A stretch of 64,000 bases of DNA from Bacteroidota bacterium (GCA_020846365.1 JADLEA010000197.1:9584-73583); one strand, 5' to 3'; counted from the stretch's first letter, positions 1 to 58,616 are shown. Numbers and translations are program-made. Notes: generated from the letters alone by a model not told the origin.

Positions 1-2809
1 CAACCAGGATGGCGATCCAGCCGACATGCCGGATGTGGTGAACATGAGCCTGGGCTCGGATCTGGGCACACCGGACGATGCCATCTCGACCGCCGTTGAC
101 AACGCGGTGAAACTGGGAATCACCTTCTGTGTGTCGGCGGGCAATAGCGGAGGATACACCCCCGTGCAGGGGAAGGAGAACAACTACTACTACACGGGGA
201 TGGAGACGATCGGGAGTCCGGCTTCGGCGCAGTTGGCAATCACCGTGGGTGCCGTGGATTCAGTCGATGACAGCCCGCGATTCTCATCGAAGGGACCCGT
301 GCGTGGAACATTCGGCATCAAGCCGGACGTCATGGCTCCAGGCGTCGAGGTGCTGTCGCTCGCACCCGGAGGCGGGCTTGCGTCGAAATCCGGTACATCG
401 ATGGCTTCACCCATGGTCGCGGGAATCGCCGCCCTGCTGAAGAGCAGAAATAACGCCCTCACCCCGGCCGAAATAAAATCAGCAATCACAAACTCATCCC
501 TGGATCTCGGGATCTCTGCGATGCGGCAGGGAGCGGGCCGCGTAGATGCAGTCCGCGCCCTGGGACTCGCATCCAGTGCCACGCCCCAGGAACTCAGCTT
601 CGGGCTCGACGATCCGGCCCTGGGCGTGTGGGCAGAAGTTGACACGATCGTGATTGCCAACCATGACGACGTCGCCCAGACCTATGCGGTGGACTTTTCT
701 CCCGGGGCTGCTGGGATCACCCTTGCCGCTTCGCCCCAGACGTTTTCGATCGTGCCCGGTGGAACTCAACAAGTCCTCGTCACCCTCACAGTCAACAACG
801 CGGCCATCCCCATTGTGGACGAGGACATCCTCATCTTTGACGGGGCCATGCGCGTTAGCGGTGCGTCGGATACTCTCCGTATCCCGTGGGCCTTCGTCCG
901 GACCTCCCGGATGATGCTTTCGTTCAGCCACCCCGAGCCCATACTTCTCGGGGCCAGCAACAGCTACTACATCACTTCGCAGTACGCACGCTTTGCGTCC
1001 AAAGTGCGATGGATCGATACGCGGCATTTGGAAGTTGTGGGAGCATTCAACGGCACGTACGACTTCGCCGTGTATTTCCCCAGCACAGGTGCTCTGGTGA
1101 CCCGGGAACAGCTGGTCTTTCAAGGGAACGATGCGCTGCACTTCGATGCGAGCGAAGCAATCCACACGCTGCAGATAGCAGGAAGCGATGAACACGGTGT
1201 TCCGTTCCCGGCATCGGCCAAGACCAGGCGGACCCTTCGCGTGGAGTTGCCCGTGACCTTTCCCCTGTATGTGGCGCTTCCTGCCGGGGAATCATCGCTC
1301 TCGGTGTCGCCGACGTCGGCGCGATTCGGCTTTCACCCCACCGTGAGTTTTGTGGATATGGAGAGCGAACGGCGGGCAGTGCTCCCCCAGTACGCAGCGT
1401 TCAAAGGTATTTCAGGCAACATGACCGTGACGCCGGCCTCAGCGACCTATCTGACACAGGTCCTGCGATTCAGAGTCCCTCCGGGAACTCCTCAGCTCAA
1501 GCTCTATTCCGAGATCATCGCGGCATTGACGGACAAGGGGCAGGAGTACTACAACACCATTCAGGTAAGTGCCGATACGCTGGACGTGCAGCATGACGAA
1601 ATCTCGATCAGGCTCGCCCTGATGCAACCCGCAAACCTGGCGTACTTCGCATCCATTGCGTTCCACACGATTGCCCGTGACCTTGGCAGTCTTTACCTGG
1701 ACTCGTCAACCCGCTATTTCTCCGCGGTGGGAGACAGCATCATGGTCGGTCTCCCGTCGCAGCGGTCGCTGGTGTCGTACGCATTGCCGAGCGGGGACAC
1801 GTTGACATTCGGTGGCGCGCCGGTACACGTCGTCAACATCGGGTACAACAATTCCTTCGGCACGTCCGTCCATTTCGATTCCAGGTTCCGTGGGAGCATG
1901 TCCGAGGATCGTTTTGCCGACTACGATTCCGCAACCTATGCGATCTATGACGCTGGCGGACAGAAGCTGGCAGGCGGACCGCTCAACGTGTCGCGGTCGC
2001 CGCTGCCGGTGGCGCCGGCCCGCTATGTCATAGACGTGAACTCGGACAACTACTTTATTGCAGGAGGCAAAGGGCGCGTGCGCATCACAAACTGGGTAGA
2101 CCTGACGAAGCAGGTCGCCGACGCACCCTACATCACTGCCTACCGCGTCCTTGATAGAAGGGGGAAAGCGACAGACCAGGTGGCGCAGGGGGACTCTGCC
2201 ACGCTGCTTTTCTCAACGCGCATTCCTGCATTCCCCGGTGAACTGCCGGTGCATGACTCCACGCAGGCCTTCTACCGTGAACACGGGACTTCGAACTGGA
2301 CCCCGCTGCCGCTTCAGCTTCTGCATAGCGACACGGAGGGGATTGGCAGCGTGTTCGCGTCTGACCTGTCAGGTGCGACCCTGCACGATTCCACGGGGAT
2401 CGAGCTTCGTGTCCGGGTGGTGGACATAACGGGCAACGCGACCGACATGATCGTGTCACCCGCGTTTGCCGTGGGTTACTGGATCAACGACGGGCCTCTG
2501 GATGTGGGGGATGGGGATCGGCTCCCTGCGCAGTATGCGCTTCTGCAGAACTATCCGAATCCATTCAATCCTGCCACGAACATTTCTTATGCGCTGCCGG
2601 TTTCCAGTGTCGTGACGGTGGAAATATTCGACATGCTCGGCCGGAGGGTCGTCACCCTGCAGGAGGGAACAAAAGCCGCGGGAGTCCACACGCTGCGGTT
2701 CGATGGATCACCGTATGCCAGCGGCGTGTATTTCTACCGGCTGCACGCCCGGTCGGTTGCGGGTGGGGGAGAATTCATGCAGGCGAAAAAGCTCGTGCTG
2801 TTGCGTTAA
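1..2809 (+). CDS. Subtilisin-like (S8) serine peptidase, 5'-truncated at the window edge, with a C-terminal T9SS sorting domain
   Basis: The frame reads through from the first bases (NQDGDPADMPDVVNMSLGS) and shows the subtilisin Asn motif VVNMSLGS and the Ser motif GTSMASPMVAGIAALL. The C-terminus (NYPNPFNPATNISYALP...VEIFDMLGRRV...GVYFYRL...KKLVLLR) is a typical Por secretion tail. Confidence 0.85.
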   Translation, partial: NQDGDPADMPDVVNMSLGSDLGTPDDAISTAVDNAVKLGITFCVSAGNSGGYTPVQGKENNYYYTGMETIGSPASAQLAITVGAVDSVDDSPRFSSKGPVRGTFGIKPDVMAPGVEVLSLAPGGGLASKSGTSMASPMVAGIAALLKSRNNALTPAEIKSAITNSSLDLGISAMRQGAGRVDAVRALGLASSATPQELSFGLDDPALGVWAEVDTIVIANHDDVAQTYAVDFSPGAAGITLAASPQTFSIVPGGTQQVLVTLTVNNAAIPIVDEDILIFDGAMRVSGASDTLRIPWAFVRTSRMMLSFSHPEPILLGASNSYYITSQYARFASKVRWIDTRHLEVVGAFNGTYDFAVYFPSTGALVTREQLVFQGNDALHFDASEAIHTLQIAGSDEHGVPFPASAKTRRTLRVELPVTFPLYVALPAGESSLSVSPTSARFGFHPTVSFVDMESERRAVLPQYAAFKGISGNMTVTPASATYLTQVLRFRVPPGTPQLKLYSEIIAALTDKGQEYYNTIQVSADTLDVQHDEISIRLALMQPANLAYFASIAFHTIARDLGSLYLDSSTRYFSAVGDSIMVGLPSQRSLVSYALPSGDTLTFGGAPVHVVNIGYNNSFGTSVHFDSRFRGSMSEDRFADYDSATYAIYDAGGQKLAGGPLNVSRSPLPVAPARYVIDVNSDNYFIAGGKGRVRITNWVDLTKQVADAPYITAYRVLDRRGKATDQVAQGDSATLLFSTRIPAFPGELPVHDSTQAFYREHGTSNWTPLPLQLLHSDTEGIGSVFASDLSGATLHDSTGIELRVRVVDITGNATDMIVSPAFAVGYWINDGPLDVGDGDRLPAQYALLQNYPNPFNPATNISYALPVSSVVTVEIFDMLGRRVVTLQEGTKAAGVHTLRFDGSPYASGVYFYRLHARSVAGGGEFMQAKKLVLLR

Positions 2810-2953
2810 CATTGCGTAGCTGTCTCCGCACCTGATGTCCTGTCTGCCGGCGCATGAGCCGTCCACGTGCGCCGGCGGGCCCGGGGACTTCGAGTTGACT
2901 TTCTGCAAGGCCGGCAGTACTTTGGATGAGGATCACTTCCGAAGAGCCCTGCC

Positions 2954-4453
2954 ATGTGGACCTCAACTTCCCGCCTCCGTTTCTTCGTCTTCTGTCTTCT
3001 CTTTCTCGACTCGGCTGCGATTGCCGCGAGTGACCGCGTTCCGGCGGTAGCCGGACAATTCTACCCTGCATCACCGGTCGAATTGCAGGCGACGCTCAAA
3101 GACCTGTTCTCGCGGGCCGAACGAAGGACCGAGAACGCCTCCGTTCGGGCTCTGATACTGCCTCACGCGGGATATGTCTTCTCGGGGCAGGTGGCTGCAT
3201 CAGGCGTCAACCAGATTGATCCCCAACAATCTATAAGGGCAATCTTCCTGATCGGTGTCAGTCACAATGCCGCCTACGATGGGGCAGCTGTGTACACGGA
3301 AGGCGGCTTTCTCACGCCACTCGGCCGGGTTCCCGTGGATGTGGATCTGGGGAAGTCTCTGTTGGGCCACAGCGGACTTTTCCTCCAGCATTCCCGGGCG
3401 CATGCGGTGGAACACTCCCTCGAAGTTCAATTGCCGTTTCTGCAATACCATCTGAAGAAGCCCTTCAAGATCGTGCCGATTCTCCTCGGCACATCGGACC
3501 CCGCAATCTGCGAACGGATTGCGGAAGCGCTGCTTCCGCATTTTTCAAAAGAGAACCTCTTCATCGTCAGTACAGACCTGTCGCACTATCCATCCTACAA
3601 GGATGCAGTGACCACTGACAAGAGGACGATCGATGCCGTGTTGTCCGGTTCTCCGCAAGAGCTTCTGAAGACCGTGCGCCAGAACGAACGGTCGGGAGGT
3701 GGCCAGTTACTGACTTCCATGTGCGGCCTGGGCGGAGTCATGGTGTTGCAGGAGATCCTCGGGGCGGCGGGGAACGGGAAGTTCACGGTGGTGCAATATC
3801 GAAACTCCGGGGATGTTCCGGCAGGGGAGAAGGACCGCGTCGTGGGCTACGCAGCGATCAAAGTCACGCAGGCCGGACGCGAGACCTTCCTCCTCCGGTC
3901 TGAAGACAAGCGTCGCCTCCTGGAGATTGCGCGATCCTCGTTGGCGAAACACCTGGCGACAGGCCACGTCCCTGCTCTGGTTGAGGCCCAGCTCTCGGAA
4001 GCGCTCCGCACGCCGTGTGGCGCGTTCGTCACACTGAAAAAACGAGGCGAGCTTCGCGGTTGCATCGGGAACTTCTCGGGCACGGAGATGCTGGCCCGCA
4101 CAGTGCAGCGGATGGCACTTGCAGCAGCGACGGAAGATCCCCGTTTCGCCCCCGTCTCGGCCGGTGAACTCGCACACCTGGATATCGAAATCTCGGTCCT
4201 CTCGCCGATGCAGAAAGTGACTTCGCCGAAGGAGATTGCATTGGGAAGGCATGGCGTCTACATCCAGAAGGGGAACCGGGCCGGTACGTTCCTGCCTCAA
4301 GTAGCAAAAGAGACGGGATGGTCTCTGGAGGAATTCCTCGGTCATTGCGCACAGGACAAAGCGGGGATTGGGTGGGAGGGGTGGAGGGATGCTGACGTGT
4401 TCGTGTATGAGGCCATCGTGTTTGGCGAAAGTGACGATGGTTCCACGCGCTGA
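2954..4453 (+). CDS. AmmeMemoRadiSam system fusion protein: MEMO1-like (protein B) N-terminal half fused to an AMMECR1 (protein A) C-terminal half, behind an apparent N-terminal signal peptide
   Basis: The AGQFYP motif near the N-terminus and the LILPHAGYVFSG motif are Memo-family hallmarks. The C-terminal half carries AMMECR1 signatures (CGAFVTLKKRGELRGCIGNF). The N-terminus MWTSTSRLRFFVFCLLFLDSAAIAAS looks like a Sec signal peptide. Confidence 0.8.
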   Translation: MWTSTSRLRFFVFCLLFLDSAAIAASDRVPAVAGQFYPASPVELQATLKDLFSRAERRTENASVRALILPHAGYVFSGQVAASGVNQIDPQQSIRAIFLIGVSHNAAYDGAAVYTEGGFLTPLGRVPVDVDLGKSLLGHSGLFLQHSRAHAVEHSLEVQLPFLQYHLKKPFKIVPILLGTSDPAICERIAEALLPHFSKENLFIVSTDLSHYPSYKDAVTTDKRTIDAVLSGSPQELLKTVRQNERSGGGQLLTSMCGLGGVMVLQEILGAAGNGKFTVVQYRNSGDVPAGEKDRVVGYAAIKVTQAGRETFLLRSEDKRRLLEIARSSLAKHLATGHVPALVEAQLSEALRTPCGAFVTLKKRGELRGCIGNFSGTEMLARTVQRMALAAATEDPRFAPVSAGELAHLDIEISVLSPMQKVTSPKEIALGRHGVYIQKGNRAGTFLPQVAKETGWSLEEFLGHCAQDKAGIGWEGWRDADVFVYEAIVFGESDDGSTR

Positions 4454-6572
4454 AGGGTGGCGCAATGCCACCGTGCTAGCAGGCGCCATCACGGCCGGGA
4501 CACAGGTGGTGCTGCTGCGCGAAGTGCTCTCTGCCTTCCTGGGCAACGAGCTGATCATCGGGATCCTCTTCTTTGACTGGCTGCTCCTTACGGGAGTCGG
4601 CGCTGTCCTTGCGCATCGTTGGGTTCCGCGCCTTCCCTCGTCTGCGATGCTACCTGTTGCCCTGGGGTCGCTTCTCATCCTGCCCCCGCTGACCTTCGCC
4701 GGCTTCCGGATGATCCCTCTCCTGGTCAGTCCCCCCGGCAGCATGCTGGACATCTGGATGATCCTGGTTGGCGCCGGTCTCGCGTTGGGTCCGGTATGTC
4801 TGGTTTCCGGAGGGGTATTCTCTCTTCTGGTGCGGGCTGCGGCCTCCAGCGGTACGCCGGGCCCTGTGGGAAAAGTGTACGCCTGGGAAGCTGTGGGGAG
4901 CCTGATCGGCGGAGTGCTCTTCAGCGTACTCCTGTTTGATGTGATCGCGTCGCATGATGTGCTCGTTGCGCTCTGTGCGGCAGGTGGGATCGTCGGGGCG
5001 GTACATGCATACAGGTCTGGCTCCCGCCGTTCCGTCGCCGTCCTTGCCCTGTGTGTGCTTCTCCTCATCGTTGCCCGGCATGCAATGGATGCGGATGCAT
5101 GGACCCACGCACGGCGGTATCCTGGTCAGGACGTTCTGTCCCATCAGGAAACTCCCTTTGGGGTTCTGACTGCCACGCGATCCGGTGGGCAGACGTCGGT
5201 CTACACCAACAATGTTCCCTTGTATGTCAGCGGCGACATCGCAAAAGCAGAACAGATCGTTCATGTTGCCGTGATCCAGCGCCCCCATGCGCCGAGGGTG
5301 CTCGTGGCGGGAGGCAATCCGGCGGAGCTTGTGCCAGAAGTATTGAAGTATGCCGGCAGCACGCTCATCTGCATAGAGGAGAATCCATGGTTGAGGCGGC
5401 TCGAACAAAAGTATTTGCCGGTCCCCCAGGACTCCCGCGTATCCTTCATTACCGGCGATCTCAGGCGATTTCTCGTCGCCTCGGCAGGTGCATTTGACGT
5501 CATCATCGTTGCCGCCCCGGAGCCATCCACGCTGCAATCGAACCGGCTCTTCACTCGAGAGGCGCTGCAGCTCATGCGCAGATCCCTCACACCCTCGGGG
5601 GTGCTCTGTCTCTCGCTTCCCTCATCCGCGGAGTACGTGGGAGATGATGCAAGGAAGGTCCGCGCGATTTTGAAAAACACCCTTGCCGAATCGTTTGCCC
5701 ATACGCTGATCCTTCCCGTCGGAGACGATGTGTTTCTGGCGTCGGATTCCACGCTCAGGCCTGACGTGGGGGCGGGCATTGCGGAAGAAGGCCTGCACAC
5801 GGCATACGTGAATGCGCACTATCTGCAAGACGACCTGATCAGCTCCAGGGCGCAGGCGCTGTCTGCTTCGCTGGACTCCGGAGCCGGAGTGAACACGGAT
5901 GCGCGTCCGATCCTGATGCTTGCGCAGATCGGACACTGGCTTCGTCTCTTCTCCGTCGATATGTGGATTCCGGCGCTCGTCGGGCTCGCCGCCGTGGTCC
6001 TCCTGTTCATCCACAGCGACCGGATGTCGCTGGGCGTCGCGGCCGCGGGTTGTGGAGGCATCGTCCTGGAATTGATGATTCTTATGATTGTGCAGGTGGG
6101 GTTTGGCAACGTGTACCAGATGAGCGGTGGGCTCATCGGACTCTACATGGCCGGGATGGGAGGCGGGGCAATTCTGGCTGGACGGATCACGCATGCCTCA
6201 CGGTGGTATGCCGGAATGCAGAGCGGACTTGTGTTGGCACTGCTTCTGGCTGCTGCGCTCTCGGCCGGCGTGTTTGCGGGTGCTTCCGGCGCCGTGGCAG
6301 GATTGGTCATCTGTTTGATTGCCGGATCGTTCAGCGCCGGTGCCGTGTTTTCGCTGACCTCCCGGATACGATCTGAGAATCCCGTGGCCACGGGCTCGCG
6401 ACTGTATGGCGTGGACTTGATGGGTTCCGCCTTGGGGGCGTTGCTTGTCGGACCGGTGTTGCTGCCCTTGTGGGGTGTGTATGTCGTTGCATCTTCAACT
6501 GCTGCCGTCGTTGCAGCGGGTGCGATCGTGTCGCTCTCATCGCCGCTCTGGAGGACATATGAACAAACGTGA
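4437..6572 (+). CDS. Polytopic membrane protein with a central spermidine-synthase-like (class I methyltransferase fold) domain flanked by multi-TM regions
   Basis: It has about 7 predicted N-terminal and about 6 C-terminal hydrophobic helices. The central region (VLVAGGNPAELVPEVL...ICIEENP...ITGDLRRFL...FDVIIVAAPEPST...LFTREAL) resembles the SpeE fold, but the GGGDGG motif is degenerate. The start was chosen at ATG 4437 and alternatives exist in 4368-4437. The gene overlaps the upstream stop by 17 nt and the downstream start by 14 nt. Confidence 0.6.
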   Translation: MVPRAEGWRNATVLAGAITAGTQVVLLREVLSAFLGNELIIGILFFDWLLLTGVGAVLAHRWVPRLPSSAMLPVALGSLLILPPLTFAGFRMIPLLVSPPGSMLDIWMILVGAGLALGPVCLVSGGVFSLLVRAAASSGTPGPVGKVYAWEAVGSLIGGVLFSVLLFDVIASHDVLVALCAAGGIVGAVHAYRSGSRRSVAVLALCVLLLIVARHAMDADAWTHARRYPGQDVLSHQETPFGVLTATRSGGQTSVYTNNVPLYVSGDIAKAEQIVHVAVIQRPHAPRVLVAGGNPAELVPEVLKYAGSTLICIEENPWLRRLEQKYLPVPQDSRVSFITGDLRRFLVASAGAFDVIIVAAPEPSTLQSNRLFTREALQLMRRSLTPSGVLCLSLPSSAEYVGDDARKVRAILKNTLAESFAHTLILPVGDDVFLASDSTLRPDVGAGIAEEGLHTAYVNAHYLQDDLISSRAQALSASLDSGAGVNTDARPILMLAQIGHWLRLFSVDMWIPALVGLAAVVLLFIHSDRMSLGVAAAGCGGIVLELMILMIVQVGFGNVYQMSGGLIGLYMAGMGGGAILAGRITHASRWYAGMQSGLVLALLLAAALSAGVFAGASGAVAGLVICLIAGSFSAGAVFSLTSRIRSENPVATGSRLYGVDLMGSALGALLVGPVLLPLWGVYVVASSTAAVVAAGAIVSLSSPLWRTYEQT

Positions 6573-7704
6573 GTTTCTCAGGTGCTGTGCGCTCGGCACG
6601 GCGGCTGCCTGTACGTATTTCCCACTTCCTTCACTGCGATGGGCAGAGCGTGGCGGGTACAGCGAGCCGGAGCCGGTTGAGGAGCTCTGGAAATGGAGCA
6701 AGGAGGCTCTCTTCGTAGAGCCGGCGGGTGATGCCATACATTGTCTGAAGTGCCCGAACGGATGCGTCATCCCTGTCGGGGAGACCGGGCGCTGCAGGAA
6801 CCGCGTGAATGTCCGCGGAAAGCTCTACTCCAATGCCTACGGAAATCCCTGCGCGGTGCATATAGATCCGATCGAAAAGAAACCCCTCCTCCACTTCCTT
6901 CCGGGAACGCGTGCCTTTTCCATTGCCACGGCAGGCTGTAATCTCGCGTGCCTGAACTGTCAGAACTGGGAGATCTCGCAGGTCAGCCCCACGGAGACAG
7001 AGAACCAGGATCTCATGCCACGGGCGGTCGTGGATGCCTGCCTCCGGGGGCACTGTGCATCGATCGCATACACGTACTCCGAGCCAACGACTTTTTACGA
7101 ATACGCATTCGACACCGCAGAGATCGCCCATCAAGAAGGGATCCGGAATGTCTGGAAATCCAACGGGTACATAGAGGAGGTCCCGCTGCGGAAACTCTGT
7201 CGCGTCATCGACGCGGCCAATATCGACTTGAAGAGTTTTGATGAAGACGTGTACGCCCGGCTCAATGCCGGCAGTCTTGCTCCCGTCTTGCGTACACTCC
7301 GTGTGTTTCGCGAGATGGGCGTGTGGCTTGAGATCACAAACCTTGTCATTCCCGGTTGGACCGACGACCTGGACATGATCCGGCGGATGTGCAACTGGCT
7401 GTGCAATAACGGACTTTCAGATTCCCCCCTCCACCTGAGCCGCTTTGTCCCCCTGTACAAACTCAACCGCCTGGCACCTACCCCCGTCAAACGACTCGAA
7501 GAAGCCCATGCCGTGGCAGTGGCCGAAGGGATGCACTATGTGTATGTCGGCAACGTTCCAGCCCACCCGACCGAACACACCTACTGCCACAAGTGCAGGA
7601 AACGTGTCATTGAGCGGCGGGGATACGCGATCCTTTCCAATGACCTCGAAAACGGGCGTTGCCGGCATTGCGGAACCTCGATTCCGGGGGTCTGGCATAC
7701 ATAA
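6559..7704 (+). CDS. AmmeMemoRadiSam system radical SAM enzyme
   Basis: CNLACLNCQNWEIS is a CX3CX2C radical SAM cluster motif in the family-typical context (DPIEKKPLLHFLPGTRAFSIATAGCNLAC). A C-terminal Cys cluster is present (HKCRKR...CRHCG). GGAGGA lies 3 nt upstream of ATG 6559. The N-terminal KREFLRCCALGTAAAC is Tat-like. Confidence 0.85.
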   Translation: MNKREFLRCCALGTAAACTYFPLPSLRWAERGGYSEPEPVEELWKWSKEALFVEPAGDAIHCLKCPNGCVIPVGETGRCRNRVNVRGKLYSNAYGNPCAVHIDPIEKKPLLHFLPGTRAFSIATAGCNLACLNCQNWEISQVSPTETENQDLMPRAVVDACLRGHCASIAYTYSEPTTFYEYAFDTAEIAHQEGIRNVWKSNGYIEEVPLRKLCRVIDAANIDLKSFDEDVYARLNAGSLAPVLRTLRVFREMGVWLEITNLVIPGWTDDLDMIRRMCNWLCNNGLSDSPLHLSRFVPLYKLNRLAPTPVKRLEEAHAVAVAEGMHYVYVGNVPAHPTEHTYCHKCRKRVIERRGYAILSNDLENGRCRHCGTSIPGVWHT

Positions 7705-7919
7705 TACCTTCCTTCCATAGGAACATTTCCACCGGTCCATCCGTTAGCAGTATTCTGTAGGGGAAGACTTGGTGTCCCTCCCGCCTTGCGCAGACGACTG
7801 CATTCCCGGCGGCTTTATTGGATCGGCACGAGTTCTTTGCATATCCCTGAGCTACCGAGAGAGCTATCCCGGCTCTTGGCATAATTCGATTTGTTCCAGC
7901 AGAGACGCATACACGACGT

Positions 7920-9497
7920 ATGTCCTTTACCCGAACGCTTTTTTGCCTGACAGGATTGCTTCTCGGCTATGCCTTCAGCAGTCCGGCACAGATTCTCCAG
8001 CCTTTCAATCCGGACAGTGCTCTTCTCGACATCGTAGGTCAACTCGAAGGGACGCCGCTTACCCTGGATCAGGCGCGGCAGTATTCCGCACAAACCTCTC
8101 CCGCCGTGGCGGCAGCGGAAGCGGCCCTCGCGGCGGCGCGCGGTGCCGTAAGGAGGGAAGGAGGGACATTCGACCCGCAGCTTTCGCTCTCATGGCGCTA
8201 CACAGATCAGAAGCAGCCGACAGCGTCGTTCTTTGCGGGAGCATCAGTTCTCCACACACTCCAGGCCGACGGAGGTGCCGGCCTGCAGTGGACTCTCCCA
8301 TCCGGCACCATGCTTGGGGCATCCATCGACGCCTCACGCCTGAATACGAATTCCTCTTTCGCGTTTCTTACACCGCAGTACACCACTTCAGGGCAACTCA
8401 CGCTGCGCCAACCCCTGCTCCGCGGATTCACCGTATCCGCGCGAAAGAACCTTGTCAATGCGGAGCAACAGTTTGCGGCAGCCGAAGCACGGTTAGCCCA
8501 GGAACGCCTGGCTCTCGCCACCCTTGTGGATCTCGTCTACTGGGATCTCTACGCAGGAGAACGCGATTATGCCGTGCAGAAACTCACGCGCGATCGTGCG
8601 GCAGCGTTCTTGCGGGATACCGAGCTGAGGGCTCAGACCGGCCTCATCGGGCCGAGTCAGGTCGCAAACGCCCGCACGTTCCTCGCTGAACAGGAGATCC
8701 TTCTGCTGGACCGGGAGGAACAGCTCGACCGTCTTTCGGATCAGCTTGCGATCGTTGTCGGCGTGAGGCCGGCGGCAGGCCAGAAGCGTTTCAAATCGGC
8801 CGATCAGCCGCCGGATGCGTTTACCGTGGGAGAAGTTGACACGCTGGTCCGGGAGGCGTTAACCCGGAATCTGGACCTGCGTGCGGCGAAGGCGGAGTTG
8901 GATGCGCGCCGCACCATGGCCAGTGCCGCGTCCTGGGAAGCTCTCCCCAGCGTGGACCTCGTCGGATCCATCGGCGGCAGCGGACTTTCCGGAAGCCCGC
9001 ATGATGTGGTCTTCGGCAGCGACACGCTGCGAACGACGGTGAGCGGGGGGCTAAGCGATGCGCTGCGGCAGGCGGTGAATCGCGATTTCCCGAACTGGCA
9101 TGTCGGATTGGAAGTCCTCGTCCCCATCGGCTTCCGGACCGGACTGGGTGAGTCGGATCGCCTCGACGCGGAAGTTGCGATTGCCGAGCAGCGATATGTG
9201 CAGGCAGAACGGATCCTGGAAGCCGAGGTCCGGTCGAGTTGCCGCGAATTGATGCACGGCCAGCAACGGCTGAGTGCTGCGCGGGCCGGGGTCGCGGCGG
9301 CTCAGGAACAGGTGCGCATCGGCCTGATCGAATTTCAGAATGGACGCTCGACAGCTTTCGAACTCGTGCGTTTGGGTGCGGACTTTGCCGTTGCGCAACA
9401 ACGCTATTCACAGGCACTTGTCCGAAGCGCAAAAAGCGCGGCCACGCTGCGCCAATTGACCTCGGGCGCGTACGATCCGGCATTGTCACGGCAGTGA
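7920..9497 (+). CDS. TolC-like outer membrane efflux protein (outer membrane factor)
   Basis: It has a signal peptide (MSFTRTLFCLTGLLLGYAFSSPAQ) and an OEP-family two-repeat alpha/beta architecture. It is the first gene of an OMF-MFP-RND operon. Confidence 0.8.
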   Translation: MSFTRTLFCLTGLLLGYAFSSPAQILQPFNPDSALLDIVGQLEGTPLTLDQARQYSAQTSPAVAAAEAALAAARGAVRREGGTFDPQLSLSWRYTDQKQPTASFFAGASVLHTLQADGGAGLQWTLPSGTMLGASIDASRLNTNSSFAFLTPQYTTSGQLTLRQPLLRGFTVSARKNLVNAEQQFAAAEARLAQERLALATLVDLVYWDLYAGERDYAVQKLTRDRAAAFLRDTELRAQTGLIGPSQVANARTFLAEQEILLLDREEQLDRLSDQLAIVVGVRPAAGQKRFKSADQPPDAFTVGEVDTLVREALTRNLDLRAAKAELDARRTMASAASWEALPSVDLVGSIGGSGLSGSPHDVVFGSDTLRTTVSGGLSDALRQAVNRDFPNWHVGLEVLVPIGFRTGLGESDRLDAEVAIAEQRYVQAERILEAEVRSSCRELMHGQQRLSAARAGVAAAQEQVRIGLIEFQNGRSTAFELVRLGADFAVAQQRYSQALVRSAKSAATLRQLTSGAYDPALSRQ

Positions 9498-9631
9498 CCG
9501 GCCGGAGAACATCACCGGGAGTGGGATACGCCGGTAAGAAATCGCATCCCGACGCGCAATGCGCGACGCAGGGGTTGTCGAACAATACGCGTGGAAGACA
9601 CGCGCGCTAGAGAGAAGAGAGGAGTGCACGT

Positions 9632-10729
9632 ATGTTCAGTAAGAGAATGCCGCTCATAGGATTCGTTTCCGTTGTCGCCGCGGGAGCCGGACTGATGTTC
9701 CTGCAGGGATGCGGAGGATCCGCGGAAGGCCACGGGTTCTCCATGCCACCCATGCCCGTCGAAGTCAGTAACGTCGTCGTGGAAAAGGTGGAGGACAAGT
9801 TCGAGGCCATTGGAACGATCGAGGCGATCGAGGCGATTACCGTCGTGGGAGAAATCGACGCCGCGGTGAAGAGTCTACCCTTCAAAGAAGGGAGCACCAT
9901 TCCCAGGGGCGGCCTCATCGCCCAGCTCGACGATGCGCAGCTCGCCGCCGAGGTCGCGCGGGCTGAGGCACTCCGGGCGCAGAGCCAGGCCACCTACCAG
10001 CGGGTAAAGAGCGTGGTGGATCAGGGTGCCGGAGCGCCGCAGGATCTGGACGACGCGGCGGCCGCGCTGAAGGTGGCAGACGCAAACCTGGACGTAGCCC
10101 GGGCACGGTTTGACAAGACAAGAGTTGTGGCGCCGTTCCAGGGCATCATCGGTGCCCGCCGGGTCAGCGTCGGTACGTTTCTCAGAGCCGGACAGGTGAT
10201 TGCTGACCTCGCGGATATCAGTCAGATTCGCGTGATCTTTTCTGCACCGGAACGATTCCTCTCGAAACTCACCCCGGGAGCCACCGTCACAGTCTCCAGT
10301 CCGGCCTTCCCTGGCTCGCATCTCAACGGACGCATCACCGTGATTGAGCCGATCATAGACCCGACCACCCGGAGCGCACGCATCGTTGCACAAGTGCAGA
10401 ATGTCGGCCTCAAGTACCGTCCGGGCATGTCCGCGAACGTTTCCGCCGTCTTGGGCGCGCGCCCAGACGCCATGACGATCCCCAGCGAAGCGGTGTTCGG
10501 CAGCGGCGATCAGTCCTTTGCCTTCGTGGTGAACCCCGATAGCACCGTCGCCCGCGCCGTGCTGACACTGGGCACCAGGTCCGCGAAATCCGTGGAGGTG
10601 CTGGAAGGGCTCAAGCCCGGTATGGTCGTCGTGCGGGCAGGGCACCAGAAGCTGTTCGAGGGGGGGAAGGTCTTCCCGATGATGAGCGAGCCCCCTGCCG
10701 GGAACGGCACAACACCCAAGGGGAACTAG
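9632..10729 (+). CDS. Efflux RND transporter periplasmic adaptor subunit (membrane fusion protein)
   Basis: A lipoprotein-type signal is present (…LMFLQGCGGS). The protein has HlyD/AcrA-like coiled-coil and beta-barrel regions. A GGAG ribosome-binding site lies upstream. Confidence 0.85.
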   Translation: MFSKRMPLIGFVSVVAAGAGLMFLQGCGGSAEGHGFSMPPMPVEVSNVVVEKVEDKFEAIGTIEAIEAITVVGEIDAAVKSLPFKEGSTIPRGGLIAQLDDAQLAAEVARAEALRAQSQATYQRVKSVVDQGAGAPQDLDDAAAALKVADANLDVARARFDKTRVVAPFQGIIGARRVSVGTFLRAGQVIADLADISQIRVIFSAPERFLSKLTPGATVTVSSPAFPGSHLNGRITVIEPIIDPTTRSARIVAQVQNVGLKYRPGMSANVSAVLGARPDAMTIPSEAVFGSGDQSFAFVVNPDSTVARAVLTLGTRSAKSVEVLEGLKPGMVVVRAGHQKLFEGGKVFPMMSEPPAGNGTTPKGN

Positions 10730-10733
10730 CGTT

Positions 10734-13700
10734 ATGAAGATCAGCACCATATCCATTCAGCGTCCGGTCTTTGCGACCGTGATGAGCTTCGGCATCCTCC
10801 TGTTCGGCATCATCTCGTTCTCCCGGCTCCCCGTGCGCGAGTATCCGGACATCGATCCGCCTATTATCTCTGTCGTCACCTTCTACCGCGGCGCGAGTCC
10901 AAACGTCGTGGAAACCGAAATTACGAACGTCCTGGAAGAGCAGTTTGCGACCCTGGAGGGCGTCAAGACCATGACGTCGTCCAGTCGTGAACAGGGCTCT
11001 GTCATCACCATCGAGTTTGAATTGAACAGGGTGGTGGATGAGGCGGCGAATGACGTGCGGGACCGGGTATCACGTGTGCGCGGCAGCCTCCCGCGCGAGA
11101 TTGAAGATCCGGTGATCTCCAAGGTCGACGTCAATGCCCAGCCCATCGTCTGGCTCGCCCTTTCGAGTCCGGAACACAACGGACTGGAGCTCACCGACAT
11201 TGCGGACCGCGTGTTGAAGGAACGCATCCAGCGCCTCACCGGCGTGGGGTCGGTGTTTATCGGCGGTGAACGGCGCTATGCCATGCGCGTCTGGCTGGAT
11301 CCCTTGCGCATGGCTGCACACGGTCTCACGACGCAGGATATTGAGTCCTCGATCCGGAGAGAGAATGCCGAGATCCCCGGAGGACGCGTGGAAGGGGTGG
11401 AGCGCGAATTCTCCGTCCGCACGCGGGGAGAGCTGACCACACCCGAGGAATTCGGCGCGATCATCATCTCCCGGAACAACGATGATATTGTGCGGTTGCG
11501 CGATGTTGCGGAAGTGCAGGTGGGCGCCGAGGACGAACGGACCGTGGCACGGTACAACGGTCAGACTGCCGTAGGGCTCGGAATCGTGAAACAGTCCAAG
11601 GCAAGCACGGTGGATGTCGCGGCGGAAGTGCGGAAAGCGATGCCCGAGCTGGCGACGCTCCTTCCTGCGGGAATGCGATTGGATCTCGCATACGATTCCT
11701 CCACCTTCATCAACGAATCGATCAACGAAGTAGTCGAATCGCTCATCATCGCCGTCTGTCTCGTGGTCCTCGTCGTGCTGGCATTTCTGAAAAGCCTGCG
11801 GGCAACGGCTATTCCCACGGTGGCCATCCCCATCTCCATCATCGGCGCCCTGACGGTCGTGTACTTTGCAGGATTCACCATCAATATCCTGACGCTCCTG
11901 GCGCTCGTGCTCGCCATCGGTCTCGTCGTGGATGACGCGATTGTCGTGCTCGAGAATATCTACCGTCACATCGAACTGGGCAAGGACAGAAGGCGTGCGG
12001 CATTTGACGGGAGCAAGGAAATCGGCTTTGCCGTCGTCGCTACCACCATCACACTCGTCGCCGTCTTCGTGCCGCTGGCCTTCCTGACCGGCTCCGTGGG
12101 ACGGCTCTTCAACGAGTTCGGGATTACGCTTGCGGTCGCCGTTTTGATCTCGGGCTTCGTTGCGCTTACGCTCTCGCCGATGCTCTCGTCGAAGATCCTC
12201 CGACCGTTGCATGGCACGAGCGCACGATGGTCTTCGCGCTCCTTCGATGAGTTCTTTGACTGGCTCGACGACATCTACGGCAAGGCGTTGCGCTTCAGCC
12301 TGAGACACAAAGCTTTGATGATCACGGGAGGAGTTGCCACCATCGCGTTGAGCGTTTTGCTCTTCCGCATGCTCCCCAGCGAGCTCGTGCCTGTGGAAGA
12401 CCGCGGCGTGGGGTTCGGGATCGTCATCGCCCCTGAGGGCGCGACGCTCGAATACACCGACAAATACATGCGCCAGGTGGAACAGCGCGTGCTCGGACTG
12501 CCGGAACGCCGCGGGCTCTTTTCCGCCATTGGACTTTCGTTTGGCGGCCCGGGGCGCGTCACCAACGGCTTCATGTTTCTGGCGCTTAAACCGATGGGGG
12601 AGCGCGACAAGAGCCAGCAGCAAATCGTGCAGGAGCTGTTTCCTCAACTCCTGGCAATCCCCGGCGTCCTCGCTTTCGTCATCAATCCGCCCAGCCTGGG
12701 AGGATCCGTTAGCTTCAGTCCGGTGCAGTATGTGCTGCAGGCCGAGACATACGAAGAACTGAGCCAGGCAGTGGGAATCATGATGGGTGAGGCGTCCAAA
12801 CTCGGCTATCTGGTCAACATGGATACCGATCTGCGGCTGAACAAACCGCAGTTGGACCTGAACATTGACCGGGAACGTGCGGCCGGGCTCGGCGTTTCGG
12901 TGACCGATATCGGCACGACGCTCGAGACGATGCTGGGTGGCCGGGAAGTGACGACGTTCAAACGCGGGACCAAGCAGTATGACGTTGTCCTCCAGATGAC
13001 CCCATCCGCCCGCGCAACACCCGATGCCATCCGGGAGATCTATGTGCGCGGGACAGCCGGCCTCGTGCAGCTCGCAAATGTCGTCCACGTGGATGAAACG
13101 CTCGGCCCGAAAGAGCTCAATCACTACAACAGAGTGCGGTCGGCCACCCTGACGGCACAGCTTGTCCCGGGCGTGAGTCTGGGTCAGGCCCTCGACGATC
13201 TCGACCGCATCGTGGCGGAAAAGCTGCCCGCGGGCGTGAAGAGGGATTTTGCGGGCCAGTCACTCGAGTACAAGACCTCCAGCACAAGCCTGTACTTCAT
13301 GTTTGTGCTCGCCGTCATTTTCATCTACCTGGTGCTCGCGGCACAGTTCGAGAGCTTTGTCCACCCGTTCACCATCCTCCTGGCAGTCCCGTTGGCCGTG
13401 TTCGGAGCGTTGCTGACACTCTTCATCTTCGGACAGTCGCTCAACATCTACTCGCAGATCGGGCTGATCATGCTCGTGGGGCTCGTCACGAAGAACTCAA
13501 TCCTGATCGTAGAGTTCTCCAACCAGCTCCGAAGGCAGGGGAAGGCTCTCCTTGACGCCGTTATCGAGGCGGCGACAATCCGGCTGCGGCCGATCCTGAT
13601 GACCTCCTTCTCAACCACCTTCGGCGTTCTGCCCATTGCTCTGGGGCTCGGAGCGGGAGGTGAGTCGAGAACCCCCCTGGGCCTGGCCATCGTGGGCGGG

Positions 13701-13871
13701 GTGCTCTTTTCCACATTCCTGACACTTCTGCTCGTCCCCGTGTTGTACACGCTGCTCGCCCGCTTCACTCGGGCGTCGCATGTGGTTGACGAAGGCGCTG
13801 AGGAGGTCGAGAGGGAGGTCGCGGCAGACCGGCTCGTGAGAGTCCCCGTACCAGAGAAGGCCGGGGCGTAG
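10734..13871 (+). CDS. Efflux RND transporter permease subunit (AcrB/CusA superfamily), 1045 aa
   Basis: It shows 12-TM RND topology with the conserved VVDDAIVVLENIYRH motif and large periplasmic loops. It lies 5 nt downstream of the adaptor gene. Confidence 0.9.
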   Translation: MKISTISIQRPVFATVMSFGILLFGIISFSRLPVREYPDIDPPIISVVTFYRGASPNVVETEITNVLEEQFATLEGVKTMTSSSREQGSVITIEFELNRVVDEAANDVRDRVSRVRGSLPREIEDPVISKVDVNAQPIVWLALSSPEHNGLELTDIADRVLKERIQRLTGVGSVFIGGERRYAMRVWLDPLRMAAHGLTTQDIESSIRRENAEIPGGRVEGVEREFSVRTRGELTTPEEFGAIIISRNNDDIVRLRDVAEVQVGAEDERTVARYNGQTAVGLGIVKQSKASTVDVAAEVRKAMPELATLLPAGMRLDLAYDSSTFINESINEVVESLIIAVCLVVLVVLAFLKSLRATAIPTVAIPISIIGALTVVYFAGFTINILTLLALVLAIGLVVDDAIVVLENIYRHIELGKDRRRAAFDGSKEIGFAVVATTITLVAVFVPLAFLTGSVGRLFNEFGITLAVAVLISGFVALTLSPMLSSKILRPLHGTSARWSSRSFDEFFDWLDDIYGKALRFSLRHKALMITGGVATIALSVLLFRMLPSELVPVEDRGVGFGIVIAPEGATLEYTDKYMRQVEQRVLGLPERRGLFSAIGLSFGGPGRVTNGFMFLALKPMGERDKSQQQIVQELFPQLLAIPGVLAFVINPPSLGGSVSFSPVQYVLQAETYEELSQAVGIMMGEASKLGYLVNMDTDLRLNKPQLDLNIDRERAAGLGVSVTDIGTTLETMLGGREVTTFKRGTKQYDVVLQMTPSARATPDAIREIYVRGTAGLVQLANVVHVDETLGPKELNHYNRVRSATLTAQLVPGVSLGQALDDLDRIVAEKLPAGVKRDFAGQSLEYKTSSTSLYFMFVLAVIFIYLVLAAQFESFVHPFTILLAVPLAVFGALLTLFIFGQSLNIYSQIGLIMLVGLVTKNSILIVEFSNQLRRQGKALLDAVIEAATIRLRPILMTSFSTTFGVLPIALGLGAGGESRTPLGLAIVGGVLFSTFLTLLLVPVLYTLLARFTRASHVVDEGAEEVEREVAADRLVRVPVPEKAGA

Positions 13872-14192: not shown

Positions 14193-14855
14193 ATGAAACC
14201 TGAGTCCACGTCATTGCGCACTCGCCCTGATCGCCGACCGCCCCAACCCGCAACAACGACCCTGCTCGTACGGAATATGGTATGCGACCGGTGCATCAAG
14301 GTTGTCCGCGATGAGCTTCAACGTCTGGGTCTGGATGTTCGCAGCATCACTCTCGGGGAAGTCGTTGTGACGGGAACGTTGGATTCCCGCAGAACGGGGG
14401 AGGTGAAAGAAGTGCTGCGGCAGAACGGGTTCGAACTCATCGAGGACAAGAGGACCAAAACAATCGAGCGGATCAGACACGCGGTGCTGAAGCTCGTCAG
14501 GGAAGAGCGGCAGACGAACGACCAACCGGCCAAGACCTCGGCCTTCATCGCCCGTGAACTCGGGCAGGAGTACCAGAGTCTGAGCGCGCTCTTTTCCACG
14601 ATGGAAGGCATGACGATTGAACAGTATGCCATCCTGCAACGCATCGAGCTGGTCAAAGAACTCCTGAAGTACGGAGAGCTTACCCTCAGCGAGATCTCCT
14701 ACAAAGTCGGTTATAGCAGTGTCCAGCACCTTTCGAACCAGTTCAAGAAAGTTACAGGTCTGACTCCCAGCCAGTTCAAACAGCTGGTCAGGAACACGCG
14801 TAAACCGCTGGACAGGGTTTCCTCCTCTTCAGAAACCTCCCGCGACCCGCAGTAG
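14193..14855 (+). CDS. AraC-family transcriptional regulator with an N-terminal HMA-like metal-binding domain
   Basis: The N-terminal TLLVRNMVCDRCIKVVRDELQRLGLDV has an MxCxxC ferredoxin-like HMA signature. The C-terminal half has the two AraC HTH motifs (LSEISYKVGYSSVQHLSNQFKKVTGLTPSQFK). Confidence 0.7.
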   Translation: MKPESTSLRTRPDRRPPQPATTTLLVRNMVCDRCIKVVRDELQRLGLDVRSITLGEVVVTGTLDSRRTGEVKEVLRQNGFELIEDKRTKTIERIRHAVLKLVREERQTNDQPAKTSAFIARELGQEYQSLSALFSTMEGMTIEQYAILQRIELVKELLKYGELTLSEISYKVGYSSVQHLSNQFKKVTGLTPSQFKQLVRNTRKPLDRVSSSSETSRDPQ

Positions 14856-14951
14856 CTCTCCGAACGGGTATTAAAGAATCCTGAAATTGTATAACGCCTT
14901 CGGGGCTTGCCGACCGTATATTGGTGGTGTAACCATCAATGAGGAGAGAGT

Positions 14952-58606: not shown

Positions 58607-58616
58607 AAGGGTGTGC

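Follow-up and report, generated by a model that had tools for sequence, protein, structure and literature searches.

Memo and AMMECR1 occur as conserved proteins in organisms that range from archaea to humans, and both have been linked to human disease. Together with a radical SAM partner they make up the AmmeMemoRadiSam system, which has been described as a three-gene set. To our knowledge, no location or function has been assigned to this set, and we know of no reaction assigned to any of its components. A literature search yielded no functional paper on the system and no paper of relevance on a periplasmic radical SAM enzyme; a description of an exported variant was not found either, which does not exclude that one exists. 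The arrangement reported here is likeliest to have been met by Burroughs et al. 2019, who are said to have extended the gene contexts of Memo. A fusion of AMMECR1 to a homologue of Memo-type dioxygenases and its radical SAM neighbourhood were described in 2007 (PMC2034487), and thus the Memo-AMMECR1 fusion itself is already known.

The membrane component described below resembles SpeE and other aminopropyltransferases (PDB 1uir, 1inl, 2o06). In spermidine synthase, the aspartate of the glycine loop binds the amine of dcSAM and excludes SAM. MFS-type helices and a SpeE-fold domain are also found together in the fused MFS/spermidine synthases (NF037959, PRK03612 (NF002956)); no paper on this family was found, and no function has been established. 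The Tat pathway exports folded proteins with bound cofactors, and we know of no radical SAM enzyme that has been established as a Tat substrate.

The locus lies in a stretch of 64,000 nucleotides from a Bacteroidota bacterium (GCA_020846365.1 JADLEA010000197.1:9584-73583), which is called the window. It qualifies as an AmmeMemoRadiSam system, because it matches TIGR04335, TIGR04336 and TIGR04337 above the cut-offs, the genes are clustered, and the CX3CX2C, RGCIG and DPRF motifs are present. In contrast to the canonical system, it contains a conserved fourth component, a membrane protein, and both soluble proteins carry predicted export signals.

Gene organization and conserved linkage

The three genes form one overlapping string at 2954-7704 (Table 1), and the gene order of fusion, membrane and radical SAM gene as well as the overlaps of 17 nt and 14 nt were found exactly as the earlier note had given them. 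The start of the membrane gene was set at the ATG at 4437, and not at the TTG at 4368 of the mechanical ORF list, because the homologues and a 100%-identical database protein (P0001) begin there. The gene overlaps recur, with 14 and 8 bases, in L004, which is among the closest relatives. Scanning of the region 2600-8100 for sigma-70 promoters and terminators revealed nothing informative.

Table 1. Features of the locus, with positions counted from the first nucleotide of the window
Feature	Position	Strand	Details
Memo-AMMECR1 fusion gene	2954-4453	+	499 aa; TIGR04336, TIGR04335, Pfam Memo and AMMECR1
Sec-type signal peptide of the fusion (predicted)	2954-3025	+	aa 1-24, MWTSTSRLRFFVFCLLFLDSAAIA, followed by AS
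Memo domain	3035-3862	+	aa 28-303; TIGR04336, Pfam
AMMECR1 domain	3914-4423	+	aa 321-490; TIGR04335, Pfam
AMMECR1 motifs	RGCIG 4055-4069, DPRF 4136-4147	+	in AMMECR1 domain
Overlap of fusion gene and membrane gene	4437-4453	+	17 nt, ATGGTTCCACGCGCTGA
14-helix MFS/SpeE-like membrane protein gene	4437-6572	+	711 aa, ATG start
MFS N-half, helices 1-6	4458-5015	+	aa 8-193; AlphaFold2, hhalign, fold search
Extra helix 7	5025-5084	+	aa 197-216; takes the chain to the outer face (model, K+R)
Spermidine-synthase-like domain, periplasm-facing (predicted)	5091-5942	+	aa 219-502; PF01564, Foldseek
SpeE-like domain, glycine/acid motifs	GGNPAE 5310-5327, IEEN 5373-5384, GDLRRF 5454-5471	+	
SpeE-like domain, C-terminal motifs	AAPEPST 5511-5531, NR 5541-5546	+	
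Extra helix 8	5964-6014	+	aa 510-526; brings the chain back to the cytoplasmic face (model, K+R)
MFS C-half, helices 9-14	6021-6536	+	aa 529-700; AlphaFold2, hhalign, fold search
Overlap of membrane gene and radical SAM gene	6559-6572	+	14 nt, ATGAACAAACGTGA
AmmeMemoRadiSam radical SAM gene	6559-7704	+	381 aa, ATG start; TIGR04337
Tat-like signal of the radical SAM enzyme (predicted)	6559-6642	+	aa 1-28, MNKREFLRCCALGTAAACTYFPLPSLRW; KR replaces RR
Radical SAM core	6730-7698	+	aa 58-380; TIGR04337
Radical SAM CX3CX2C	6937-6960	+	CNLACLNC, aa 127-134
Additional Cys motifs	N-terminal CX2CX3C 6742-6765; C-terminal CX2C...CX2C 7585-7671	+	

The family assignments of the earlier note withstood the HMM check. 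The fusion protein matched TIGR04336 (protein B, Memo type) with 254.6 bits (cut-off 26, residues 28-303) and TIGR04335 (protein A, AMMECR1 type) with 166 bits (cut-off 99, residues 321-490), and both the Memo and the AMMECR1 model of Pfam passed. The radical SAM enzyme matched TIGR04337 with 344.4 bits (cut-off 220), and the Pfam model Radical_SAM passed on the 381-aa protein. The Memo domain matched structures of human MEMO1 (E 4e-19) and contains the candidate metal-site motifs PHAGY, VSH, DLSHY and MCG. The RGCIG and DPRF motifs of the AMMECR1 domain correspond to the RGChG and DxRa signatures, the proposed active site of AMMECR1 (PMC2034487).

To assess the conservation of the arrangement, one genome per species was scanned, which revealed 400 relatives of the membrane protein. 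The best 80 were analyzed, all of which belonged to Bacteroidota/Ignavibacteriota. Among these 80, the Memo-AMMECR1 gene was found upstream of the membrane gene in 60 of 60 assessable loci, the radical SAM gene was found downstream in 58 of 61, and all three genes were together in 47 of the 50 loci from distinct species with sufficient flanking sequence. The fusion of Memo and AMMECR1 was present in essentially all related loci. Around the locus, conservation was restricted to the families of the three genes (in 81, 70 and 66 loci), while no other neighbour occurred in more than 13. The membrane gene truly belongs with the AmmeMemoRadiSam genes: linkage to both of them in 47 of 50 loci rules out a chance neighbour, and also the stray insertion that would have refuted the earlier note.

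An MFS-fold transporter with an inserted SpeE-like domain

The AlphaFold2 model of the 711-aa membrane protein (pLDDT 88.9, pTM 0.89) contains seven helices, a soluble domain, and another seven helices. The helix count of about 13 given in the earlier note has to be raised to 14. The N-terminal half of the helices is homologous to the C-terminal half (hhalign probability 98.5%, E 2.8e-15), and a fold search identified the MFS fold, which was not detected by a Pfam sequence search of the window protein. With two homologous six-helix bundles and this fold match, the criterion for an MFS fold was met. In this MFS-fold transporter, the two bundles of six helices (6+6) are separated by an insert consisting of a helix, the SpeE-like domain, and a second helix. 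The fold leaves the transported substrate undetermined, and its identity can only be inferred; the fold search matched lipid transporters no better than amine or drug transporters. The lipid or polyamine-like substrate suggested in the earlier note has been neither demonstrated nor ruled out.

The numbers of lysines and arginines alternate between successive loops in 64 homologues, with values of 0.7-2.6 for inside and 0-0.17 for outside loops; the weakest point of the alternation is the loop between helices 8 and 9, counted as inside, with 0.34. Because of this alternation, both termini are assigned to the inside and the SpeE-like domain to the outside, and canonical MFS topology likewise demands N-in, C-in, and a central insert outside. 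The SpeE-like domain, which the earlier note had regarded as membrane-embedded, is therefore placed on the periplasmic side of the transporter, as predicted from the sequences and the model.

The Pfam model Spermine_synth (PF01564) matched the membrane protein with 43.3 bits (cut-off 22.9, residues 271-394), and Foldseek aligned the domain with 1uir at a TM-score of about 0.7, fulfilling the criterion of an aminopropyltransferase domain and fold. However, the equivalog models failed: TIGR00417 yielded 45.6 versus 249.55 bits, PRK00811 49 versus 260, and PRK03612 90.1 versus 472. In an alignment with AtSPDS1, the plant spermidine synthase motif GGGDGG corresponds to GGNPAE, which bears out the degenerate glycine motif noticed before and lacks the loop aspartate that binds the aminopropyl amine of dcSAM. 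EID is changed to EEN, GDG to GDL, and DSSDP to AAPEP, the latter followed by an invariant NR. The catalytic aspartates of DSSDP are thus absent, and the first of these positions varies across the family. A family-wide comparison revealed GGGAxG or variants thereof at the glycine loop and PEPS..NR.YT motifs.

According to this comparison of motifs, the adenosine-binding acids are retained, whereas the dcSAM-specific and the catalytic aspartates have been lost. Because of this loss, the domain is not an aminopropyltransferase, and a genuine polyamine synthase can be ruled out. We infer, from a reading of the motifs alone, that it binds or uses an adenosyl compound, most simply SAM. In contrast to SpeE, it is inserted in a transporter and is predicted to face the periplasm.

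The window protein scored 27.1 bits with NF037959, below the cut-off of 40; two relatives that adjoin Tat-type radical SAM genes passed, with 80.7 bits (L086) and 41.1 bits (L087). In comparison to the NF037959 and PRK03612 proteins, it is a member of a separate subfamily, whose proteins have about 710-725 aa and are tied to AmmeMemoRadiSam genes. The more distant family members L082 and L083 had no AmmeMemoRadiSam neighbours.

Predicted export of the two soluble proteins

The N-terminus of the fusion protein contains a basic n-region, a hydrophobic core, and an A-x-A site, and precedes position 1 of the TIGR04336 model, which corresponds to residue 28. All related fusions have a hydrophobic N-terminus before the Memo domain, and often it ends in a cysteine, similar to lipoproteins. 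Export of the fusion via a Sec signal peptide is thus predicted.

In the radical SAM enzyme, the match to TIGR04337 begins only at residue 58. The N-terminus reads N-K-R-E-F-L-R and did not match the Tat model TIGR01409. Every radical SAM protein of the clade carries [ST/N]-K-R-x-F-[LI]-K and a weakly hydrophobic stretch, and this signal was less hydrophobic than the Sec signal of the partner in 54 of 54 loci (p 1.6e-10). The class is large: of 104 non-fused radical SAM representatives close to the window enzyme, 26 have twin-arginine-type (RR) N-termini, and the N-termini of a further three are hydrophobic. Five of the tested RR relatives, which stem from other phyla, passed TIGR01409 (16.9-19.0 bits, cut-off 16.7); the short Pfam model TAT_signal gave only sub-threshold matches. 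Signal-bearing proteins clustered by their core sequences (nearest-neighbour concordance 0.94 versus 0.59 after permutation). The relatives' S/T-R-R-x-F-L-K signals resemble those of Tat-exported iron-sulfur proteins, whereas the signal in the window has KR. A Tat-like signal is predicted for the window enzyme, and both its export and the dependence on Tat are inferred.

The nearest solved relatives of the enzyme are pyruvate formate-lyase activating enzymes (E 5e-10). The CX3CX2C motif is shared with glycyl-radical activating enzymes (pyruvate formate-lyase activase, 3c8f / 8fo0), whereas the additional N- and C-terminal Cys motifs and the predicted export signal are not. The equivalog model PFLA failed (52.2 versus 231.75 bits), and no glycyl-radical enzyme was found among the conserved neighbours of the related loci.

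The export signals on the two soluble proteins, which were absent from the earlier note, are ranked here as the most telling feature of the locus.

Related loci in other phyla

In several gene orders, MFS/SpeE-like genes adjoin Tat-type radical SAM genes also in L081, L086 and L087; 34 of 80 loci from metagenomes show the same neighbourhood. Domain scans showed that the membrane protein is fused to FMN_bind and a NapH/NosR-like iron-sulfur module in L088, L141 and L160; for L153, the same fusion is indicated only by a full-length tblastn match. The FMN_bind and Fer4_5 modules of the fusions match the models of NosR, NapH and RnfG. P0208, P0211 and P0217 carry the FMN_bind and NapH/NosR-like module on the radical SAM enzyme itself, as a direct fusion. 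These adjoining genes and electron-module fusions in other phyla argue for a machinery by which the enzymes are supplied with something from across the membrane. Conduits of the NosR/NapH/RnfG type are fused in the relatives, whereas the cassette of the window has no electron-conduit module.

The radical SAM protein of the NosR-fused subtype has no signal, and therefore the membrane side of the enzyme may differ between subtypes. Of the 19 signal-type loci that were assessable in the strict sense, 7 had no membrane gene nearby, and neither had L084 and L085; the gene is therefore dispensable there or encoded elsewhere in the genome. Two signal-less radical SAM relatives and a stand-alone signal-less group, a small control, had no MFS/SpeE-like neighbour. 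A Fisher test of signal type versus membrane gene in the metagenome loci gave p = 1 but carries no meaning: the classifier mislabelled several RR proteins, and loci with a match were counted as assessable by construction. Descriptive counts for the strict subset are therefore given instead.

Proposed function and alternatives

The odds seem to us roughly even that the locus encodes an extracytoplasmic variant of the AmmeMemoRadiSam system, to which the cytoplasm is connected by the MFS partner, possibly through export of SAM. While gene structure, families, linkage, and the MFS and SpeE folds were established, the role of the outer domain, like the identity of the cargo, is inferred, and none of the evidence is experimental. 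The three genes with their four modules would form a self-contained cassette. A Sec signal peptide would export the Memo-AMMECR1 fusion, and a Tat-type signal the radical SAM enzyme, which has to fold beforehand around its iron-sulfur cluster. The SAM-fold domain of the MFS protein would lie on the periplasmic face, adjoining the other two enzymes. The MFS half may carry a small, positively charged molecule of the cytoplasm through the membrane; we favour SAM, of which the periplasm is otherwise devoid. The outer SpeE-like domain might capture SAM on behalf of the radical SAM enzyme, or itself employ it in a transfer reaction belonging to the pathway; the chemistry on a substrate of the cell envelope might be finished by Memo and AMMECR1.

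We are more doubtful about the complete version, i.e., a whole radical SAM pathway outside of the cytoplasm with a Tat-exported enzyme, SAM export and hand-over by the MFS protein and, in sister lineages, electrons from NosR/NapH-like modules. We know of no SAM-dependent enzyme or SAM exporter in the periplasm, nor of a low-potential reductant there that could serve radical SAM enzymes, and the prior for periplasmic turnover is therefore low. If the complete version was true, it would represent the first periplasmic SAM supply and the first periplasmic radical SAM catalysis, and it would place the unknown substrate of Memo and AMMECR1 in the cell envelope. The reading of the Tat signal, if true, would by itself challenge the assumption that radical SAM enzymes work only in the cytoplasm, where SAM and low-potential reductants are available. 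The predicted location in the cell envelope narrows the search for the substrate, the transporter-like partner brings a ligand-binding domain that is open to purification and testing, and the relatives add a fused electron conduit as a further handle.

In a possible, albeit not a probable, alternative, the cargo that the MFS half exports or flips would be the substrate of the pathway (amine, lipid, or lipid-linked intermediate), and the outer domain would be a true transferase, which would transfer a methyl or a 3-amino-3-carboxypropyl group from SAM, with the remaining steps left to the other enzymes. SAM would still be required outside of the cytoplasm, and thus the main difficulty stays; moreover, the position of the catalytic aspartate is not conserved in the family, and the fold matches do not favour lipid transporters.

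It appears improbable that Tat exports the radical SAM enzyme preloaded with its cluster and SAM and that the enzyme then acts once, or with regenerated SAM, installing a radical or a modification on Memo-AMMECR1 or another envelope target, while the membrane protein does something else, e.g., transports a substrate. Glycyl-radical activating enzymes are indeed the closest characterized relatives, some Tat-type loci are devoid of the membrane gene, and Tat carries cofactor-bound proteins. However, a single turnover per exported enzyme would be costly, and the tight, overlapping linkage to a SAM-fold membrane protein would not be accounted for.

Even less support exists for the view that the N-terminal hydrophobic segments are merely anchors and that the SpeE-like domain and all other catalytic domains lie on the cytoplasmic side, in a membrane complex. 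Neither SAM nor a reductant would then be required outside of the cell, and the signal-less enzyme of the NosR-fused subtype would fit. P0278, a protein truncated at both ends, may be a radical SAM-MFS read-through; this is unverified, and if it were real, the enzyme would sit at the N-terminal, cytoplasmic end of the MFS protein. The charge distribution and the MFS topology, however, put the SpeE-like domain outside, the A-x-A cleavage site and the lipoprotein-like cysteines of relatives speak against anchors, the RR motifs of relatives pass a curated Tat model, and the basic residues before the hydrophobic segments indicate an N-in, C-out orientation.

An ordinary membrane-bound spermidine synthase that lies between two AmmeMemoRadiSam genes by chance would agree with the Spermine_synth match and with the label "spermidine synthase" that some sources give to relatives, but is hardly tenable and already contradicted by the evidence at hand, as TIGR00417 and PRK03612 fail widely, the dcSAM-selecting and catalytic aspartates are missing, and the linkage extends over species and across phyla in varied gene orders.

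A conserved cassette around a membrane gene

The cassette consists of three genes on one strand, spanning positions 2954-7704 of the window, and HMM searches established the family membership of its products. Residues 28-303 of the fusion protein matched AmmeMemoRadiSam protein B (Memo; TIGR04336, 254.6 bits), residues 321-490 matched AmmeMemoRadiSam protein A (AMMECR1; TIGR04335, 166 bits), and the radical SAM protein exceeded the cut-off of 220 of TIGR04337 with 344.4 bits. Spermine_synth (PF01564) matched residues 271-394 of the membrane protein with 43.3 bits; on every spermidine synthase equivalog model the protein remained far under the cut-off. The three family assignments of the earlier note, which had been made without database searches, were thus confirmed, and the gene overlaps of 17 nt and 14 nt were exactly as it had claimed.

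Features of the cassette, of the surrounding window and of related loci
Feature	Position	Strand	Remarks
S8 peptidase (subtilase) with type IX secretion C-terminal sorting domain	26-2809	+	upstream of cassette
Memo-AMMECR1 fusion gene	2954-4453	+	499 aa; TIGR04336 and TIGR04335 matches
Membrane gene	4437-6572	+	ATG start; 711 aa; PF01564 Spermine_synth
Radical SAM gene	6559-7704	+	ATG start; 381 aa; TIGR04337
Efflux operon: TolC-like outer-membrane protein, periplasmic adaptor, RND permease	7920-13871	+	directly downstream of cassette
AraC-type regulator, then heavy-metal (HMA domain) P-type ATPase	14193-17219	+	
Esterase-like protein	56957-58603	+	textbook twin-arginine N-terminus MSRLTRRTFLQSGATV; weak xylanase/feruloyl esterase model match
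MtaA/CmuA / uroporphyrinogen-decarboxylase-like methyltransferase family	58584-60068	+	weak match, ~90 bits, under cut-off
Extended MFS/SpeE-like protein	L088:1255-4887		
Extended MFS/SpeE-like protein	L160:10784-14698		
Extended MFS/SpeE-like protein	L141:3275-6631		
Extended MFS/SpeE-like protein	L153:3680-6709		

Linkage was surveyed with one genome per species, using the membrane-protein alignment as query. This search yielded 400 relatives, and the best 80, all from Bacteroidota or Ignavibacteriota metagenome-assembled genomes, were examined. Among these 80, Memo/AMMECR1 directly preceded the membrane gene in 60/60 loci that had 2 kb or more of upstream sequence. The radical SAM gene followed the membrane gene in 58/61 loci with at least 3 kb on the downstream side, and 47 of 50 assessable loci had both partners. 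Memo and AMMECR1 formed a single reading frame in essentially all related loci, and the gene overlaps were retained in the nearest relatives. Clustering of all ORFs in these loci showed that conservation is limited to the three cassette genes: the membrane protein recurred in 81 loci, the fusion in 70 and the radical SAM enzyme in 66, and the next commonest neighbour family in 13. Therefore, the cassette is a self-contained module found in varied genomic contexts. The membrane gene, which the earlier note had described as inserted, is a conserved partner of the Memo-AMMECR1 and radical SAM genes and recurs beside them in other genomes. More distant members of the membrane family showed no linkage to the AmmeMemoRadiSam system.

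Architecture of the membrane protein

An AlphaFold2 model generated from 64 homologues was confident (pLDDT 88.9, pTM 0.89) and placed a soluble domain (residues 219-502) between two sets of seven helices. Helices 1-6 are homologous to helices 9-14 (hhalign probability 98.5%, E 2.8e-15). From this repeat homology and the model, the order of elements is a major facilitator superfamily (MFS) half, extra helix 7, the spermidine-synthase-fold (SpeE-like) domain, extra helix 8, and the second MFS half. MFS proteins have cytoplasmic termini and a cytoplasmic central loop; with one extra helix on each side, the inserted domain should thus lie outside the cell. The number of Lys and Arg residues per loop in the 64-sequence alignment alternated between successive loops (0.7-2.6 inside, 0-0.17 outside; the TM8-9 loop was the weakest inside loop with 0.34). 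These counts independently support the predicted topology, with both termini inside and the SpeE-like domain in the periplasm.

Comparison with plant spermidine synthase revealed that aminopropyltransferase residues were lost. The GGGDGG motif is replaced by GGNPAE, which lacks the loop aspartate, and DSSDP is replaced by AAPEP, which lacks the catalytic aspartate. Retained are the ribose-binding acid of EID (EEN in the window protein; E314, nearly invariant) and D341 of GDG (GDL; nearly invariant, with 90% or more conservation across the 64 aligned sequences). A conserved Asn-Arg follows AAPEP (R370 invariant, N369 nearly so), and the wider "fused MFS/spermidine synthase" family has the same pattern (GGGAxG and xxPEPS..NR.YT). 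In spermidine synthase, the GGGDGG aspartate binds the amine of decarboxylated SAM (dcSAM) and excludes SAM, and its loss lets enzymes of this fold, e.g. putrescine N-methyltransferase, take SAM and not dcSAM. From these residues alone, we infer that the SpeE-like domain has kept the ability to bind an adenosyl compound, probably SAM, and that it makes no polyamines. A genuine polyamine synthase is poorly supported, as both aspartates are lost and all equivalog models failed.

Predicted export signals

The fusion protein starts with MWTSTSRLRFFVFCLLFLDSAAIA, followed by AS, a basic, hydrophobic A-x-A signal peptide ahead of position 1 of the Memo model. Such N-termini were present on the fusions of all relatives; in many versions from Bacteroidales, they terminate in a Cys resembling that of lipoproteins (...C-N-S-Q). 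The radical SAM enzyme starts with MNKREFLRCCALGTAAAC and has about 50 residues before the family model begins. Its counterparts in related loci carry [S/T/N]-K-R-x-F-[L/I]-K and then a short Gly/Ala/Cys-rich stretch, which was less hydrophobic than the Sec signal of the partner in 54/54 loci (1.72 versus 2.78, p 1.6e-10). Weaker hydrophobicity is the classical feature distinguishing Tat from Sec signals. The export signals of both proteins had been missed in the earlier note.

A HMMER search of 1.84 billion representative proteins returned 1310 radical SAM relatives at E < 1e-30. N-termini like DRRRFLKVCGLSALAAG or TGRREFLARAAGLLAATAG were found in 26 of 104 non-fused representatives. Five of the tested twin-arginine (RR) N-termini passed the NCBI Tat-signal model (16.9-19.0 bits, cut-off 16.7); the Lys-Arg (KR) version of the window enzyme was not detected by this model. 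Signal-bearing enzymes grouped by core sequence (nearest-neighbour concordance 0.94 versus 0.59 permuted), and therefore the signal is an inherited trait, not gene-calling noise. Judged from the sequences, the KR motif of the window clade appears to correspond to the true twin-arginine motif of other relatives. The RR N-terminus of the esterase-like protein of the window suggests that RR Tat signals are in use in this organism, while KR is found on its radical SAM enzyme.

Occurrence in other lineages

A metagenome scan seeded with RR-type radical SAM enzymes returned 80 loci, about 50 of which had an RR or KR radical SAM N-terminus. The MFS/SpeE-like gene adjoined the radical SAM gene in 34 of the 80, in several gene orders and on either strand, and adjacent Memo-AMMECR1 proteins had a hydrophobic N-terminus in every case. 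In the strict subset of signal-type loci with at least 4 kb on both sides, the membrane gene was present in 12/19 and absent in 7/19. A Desulfatibacillaceae locus encodes a Tat-type radical SAM enzyme and a signal-bearing fusion without a membrane gene nearby. In one Verrucomicrobial locus, the membrane gene occurs together with a small membrane ORF and a radical SAM gene of the RR-Tat type, and in two loci of unknown phylum RR-Tat radical SAM genes accompany proteins of 731 and 788 aa that pass the "fused MFS/spermidine synthase" model. Signal-less radical SAM relatives were standalone genes. One such group (loci L150, L156, L159, L161, L162, L165, L166 and L168) starts with M-x-x-L-K-I-L-Q-K-T-x-x-L-H; as far as its flanks were available, they contained neither Memo nor AMMECR1 nor a membrane gene.

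In two distant lineages, the membrane and radical SAM genes are separated by small ORFs (L081:7199-7462, 87 aa; L088:4890-5141, 83 aa) for which one or two membrane helices are predicted and which, by eye, have no obvious similarity to one another. Another locus (L085:6001-7873 and downstream to 10898) has an RR-Tat radical SAM gene without Memo/AMMECR1 in its vicinity; next come a gene for a signal-bearing protein of 226 aa with apparent internal repeats and no family match, and then flavodoxin-like, rubredoxin and flavo-diiron-like genes.

Fusions to electron-transfer modules

On four independent contigs (L088, L141, L160, L153), the MFS/SpeE-like protein reaches 1210-1304 aa through two additions, an RnfG-like FMN_bind domain and an iron-sulfur membrane module of the NapH/NosR type (Fer4_5). 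L153 was included solely on a full-length tblastn match to the library protein P0066, and its domains were not scanned. These proteins occur in another lineage, and their neighbours are a signal-less TIGR04337 enzyme and a membrane-anchored Memo-AMMECR1. In three proteins of the representative library (P0208, P0211, P0217), the same NosR/NapH-like module, with two CX3CP motifs and 5-13 helices, is fused directly to the radical SAM N-terminus. NosR, NapH and RnfG are trans-membrane electron carriers. As far as sequence can tell, the conduit fusions suggest that the general job of the membrane partner is to link AmmeMemoRadiSam enzymes to cytoplasmic resources; the working side of the radical SAM enzyme may differ between subtypes.

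Several further arrangements were observed. P0205, P0209 and P0211 start with a multi-helix module with paired Cys (GLSLGxxC..xC), which may be a thiol-based membrane electron carrier. In P0207, P0212, P0214 and P0228, the radical SAM core is preceded by a single signal-anchor helix and an unassigned stretch of 250-550 residues, apparently another extracytoplasmic route. P0278 is a 523-aa sequence with both ends missing, in which the radical SAM core continues into the first five MFS/SpeE-like helices. Either the fusion is genuine, and the enzyme would then sit at the cytoplasmic N-terminus of the MFS, or the short contig contains a frameshift or read-through. A Tat-signal-like 54-aa ORF (L088:6115-6279, containing ARRRFLLAVMSLLALPALA) overlaps the Memo-AMMECR1 start in a different frame and may be its true N-terminus, split off by a frameshift; if so, the radical SAM enzyme, which has no signal here, could travel with it as a co-exported passenger.

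Proposed function

A periplasmic location is predicted not only for the SpeE-like domain but also for the fusion and, by way of Tat, for the radical SAM enzyme; all statements on location and mechanism are computational. We infer that the MFS half would export a small cationic molecule from the cytoplasm. SAM is the favoured cargo, because all SAM-dependent readings require it outside the cytoplasm and a SAM-fold domain is built into the transporter. Once exported, SAM would be passed by the outer SpeE-like domain to the radical SAM enzyme, or that domain would itself consume it within the pathway. In the main rival model, the exported molecule is the pathway substrate, and the outer domain acts as a transferase of methyl or aminocarboxypropyl groups. 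Alternatively, the radical SAM enzyme might be exported pre-loaded with SAM and act as an activase. An assembly at the cytoplasmic face is poorly supported.

The AmmeMemoRadiSam triad and the Memo-AMMECR1 fusion were already known (NCBIfam; PMC2034487). In the searched literature, which lacked the likeliest place, Burroughs et al. 2019, neither the export signals nor the MFS/SpeE-like fourth component nor the fusions to electron conduits were found described.

Genes surrounding the cassette

The genes flanking the cassette are unrelated to the system, and the TolC/RND efflux operon is not conserved beside it in other genomes. The subtilase gene is probably truncated by the window start, as its match sets in only at profile position 112. 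A second protein with a type IX secretion tail is encoded at 26553-28532, and a PorV-like gene is located at 34866-35849; these type IX secretion features are consistent with a source in the Bacteroidota/Ignavibacteriota group. The methyltransferase-like gene lies within a carbohydrate-utilisation neighbourhood.
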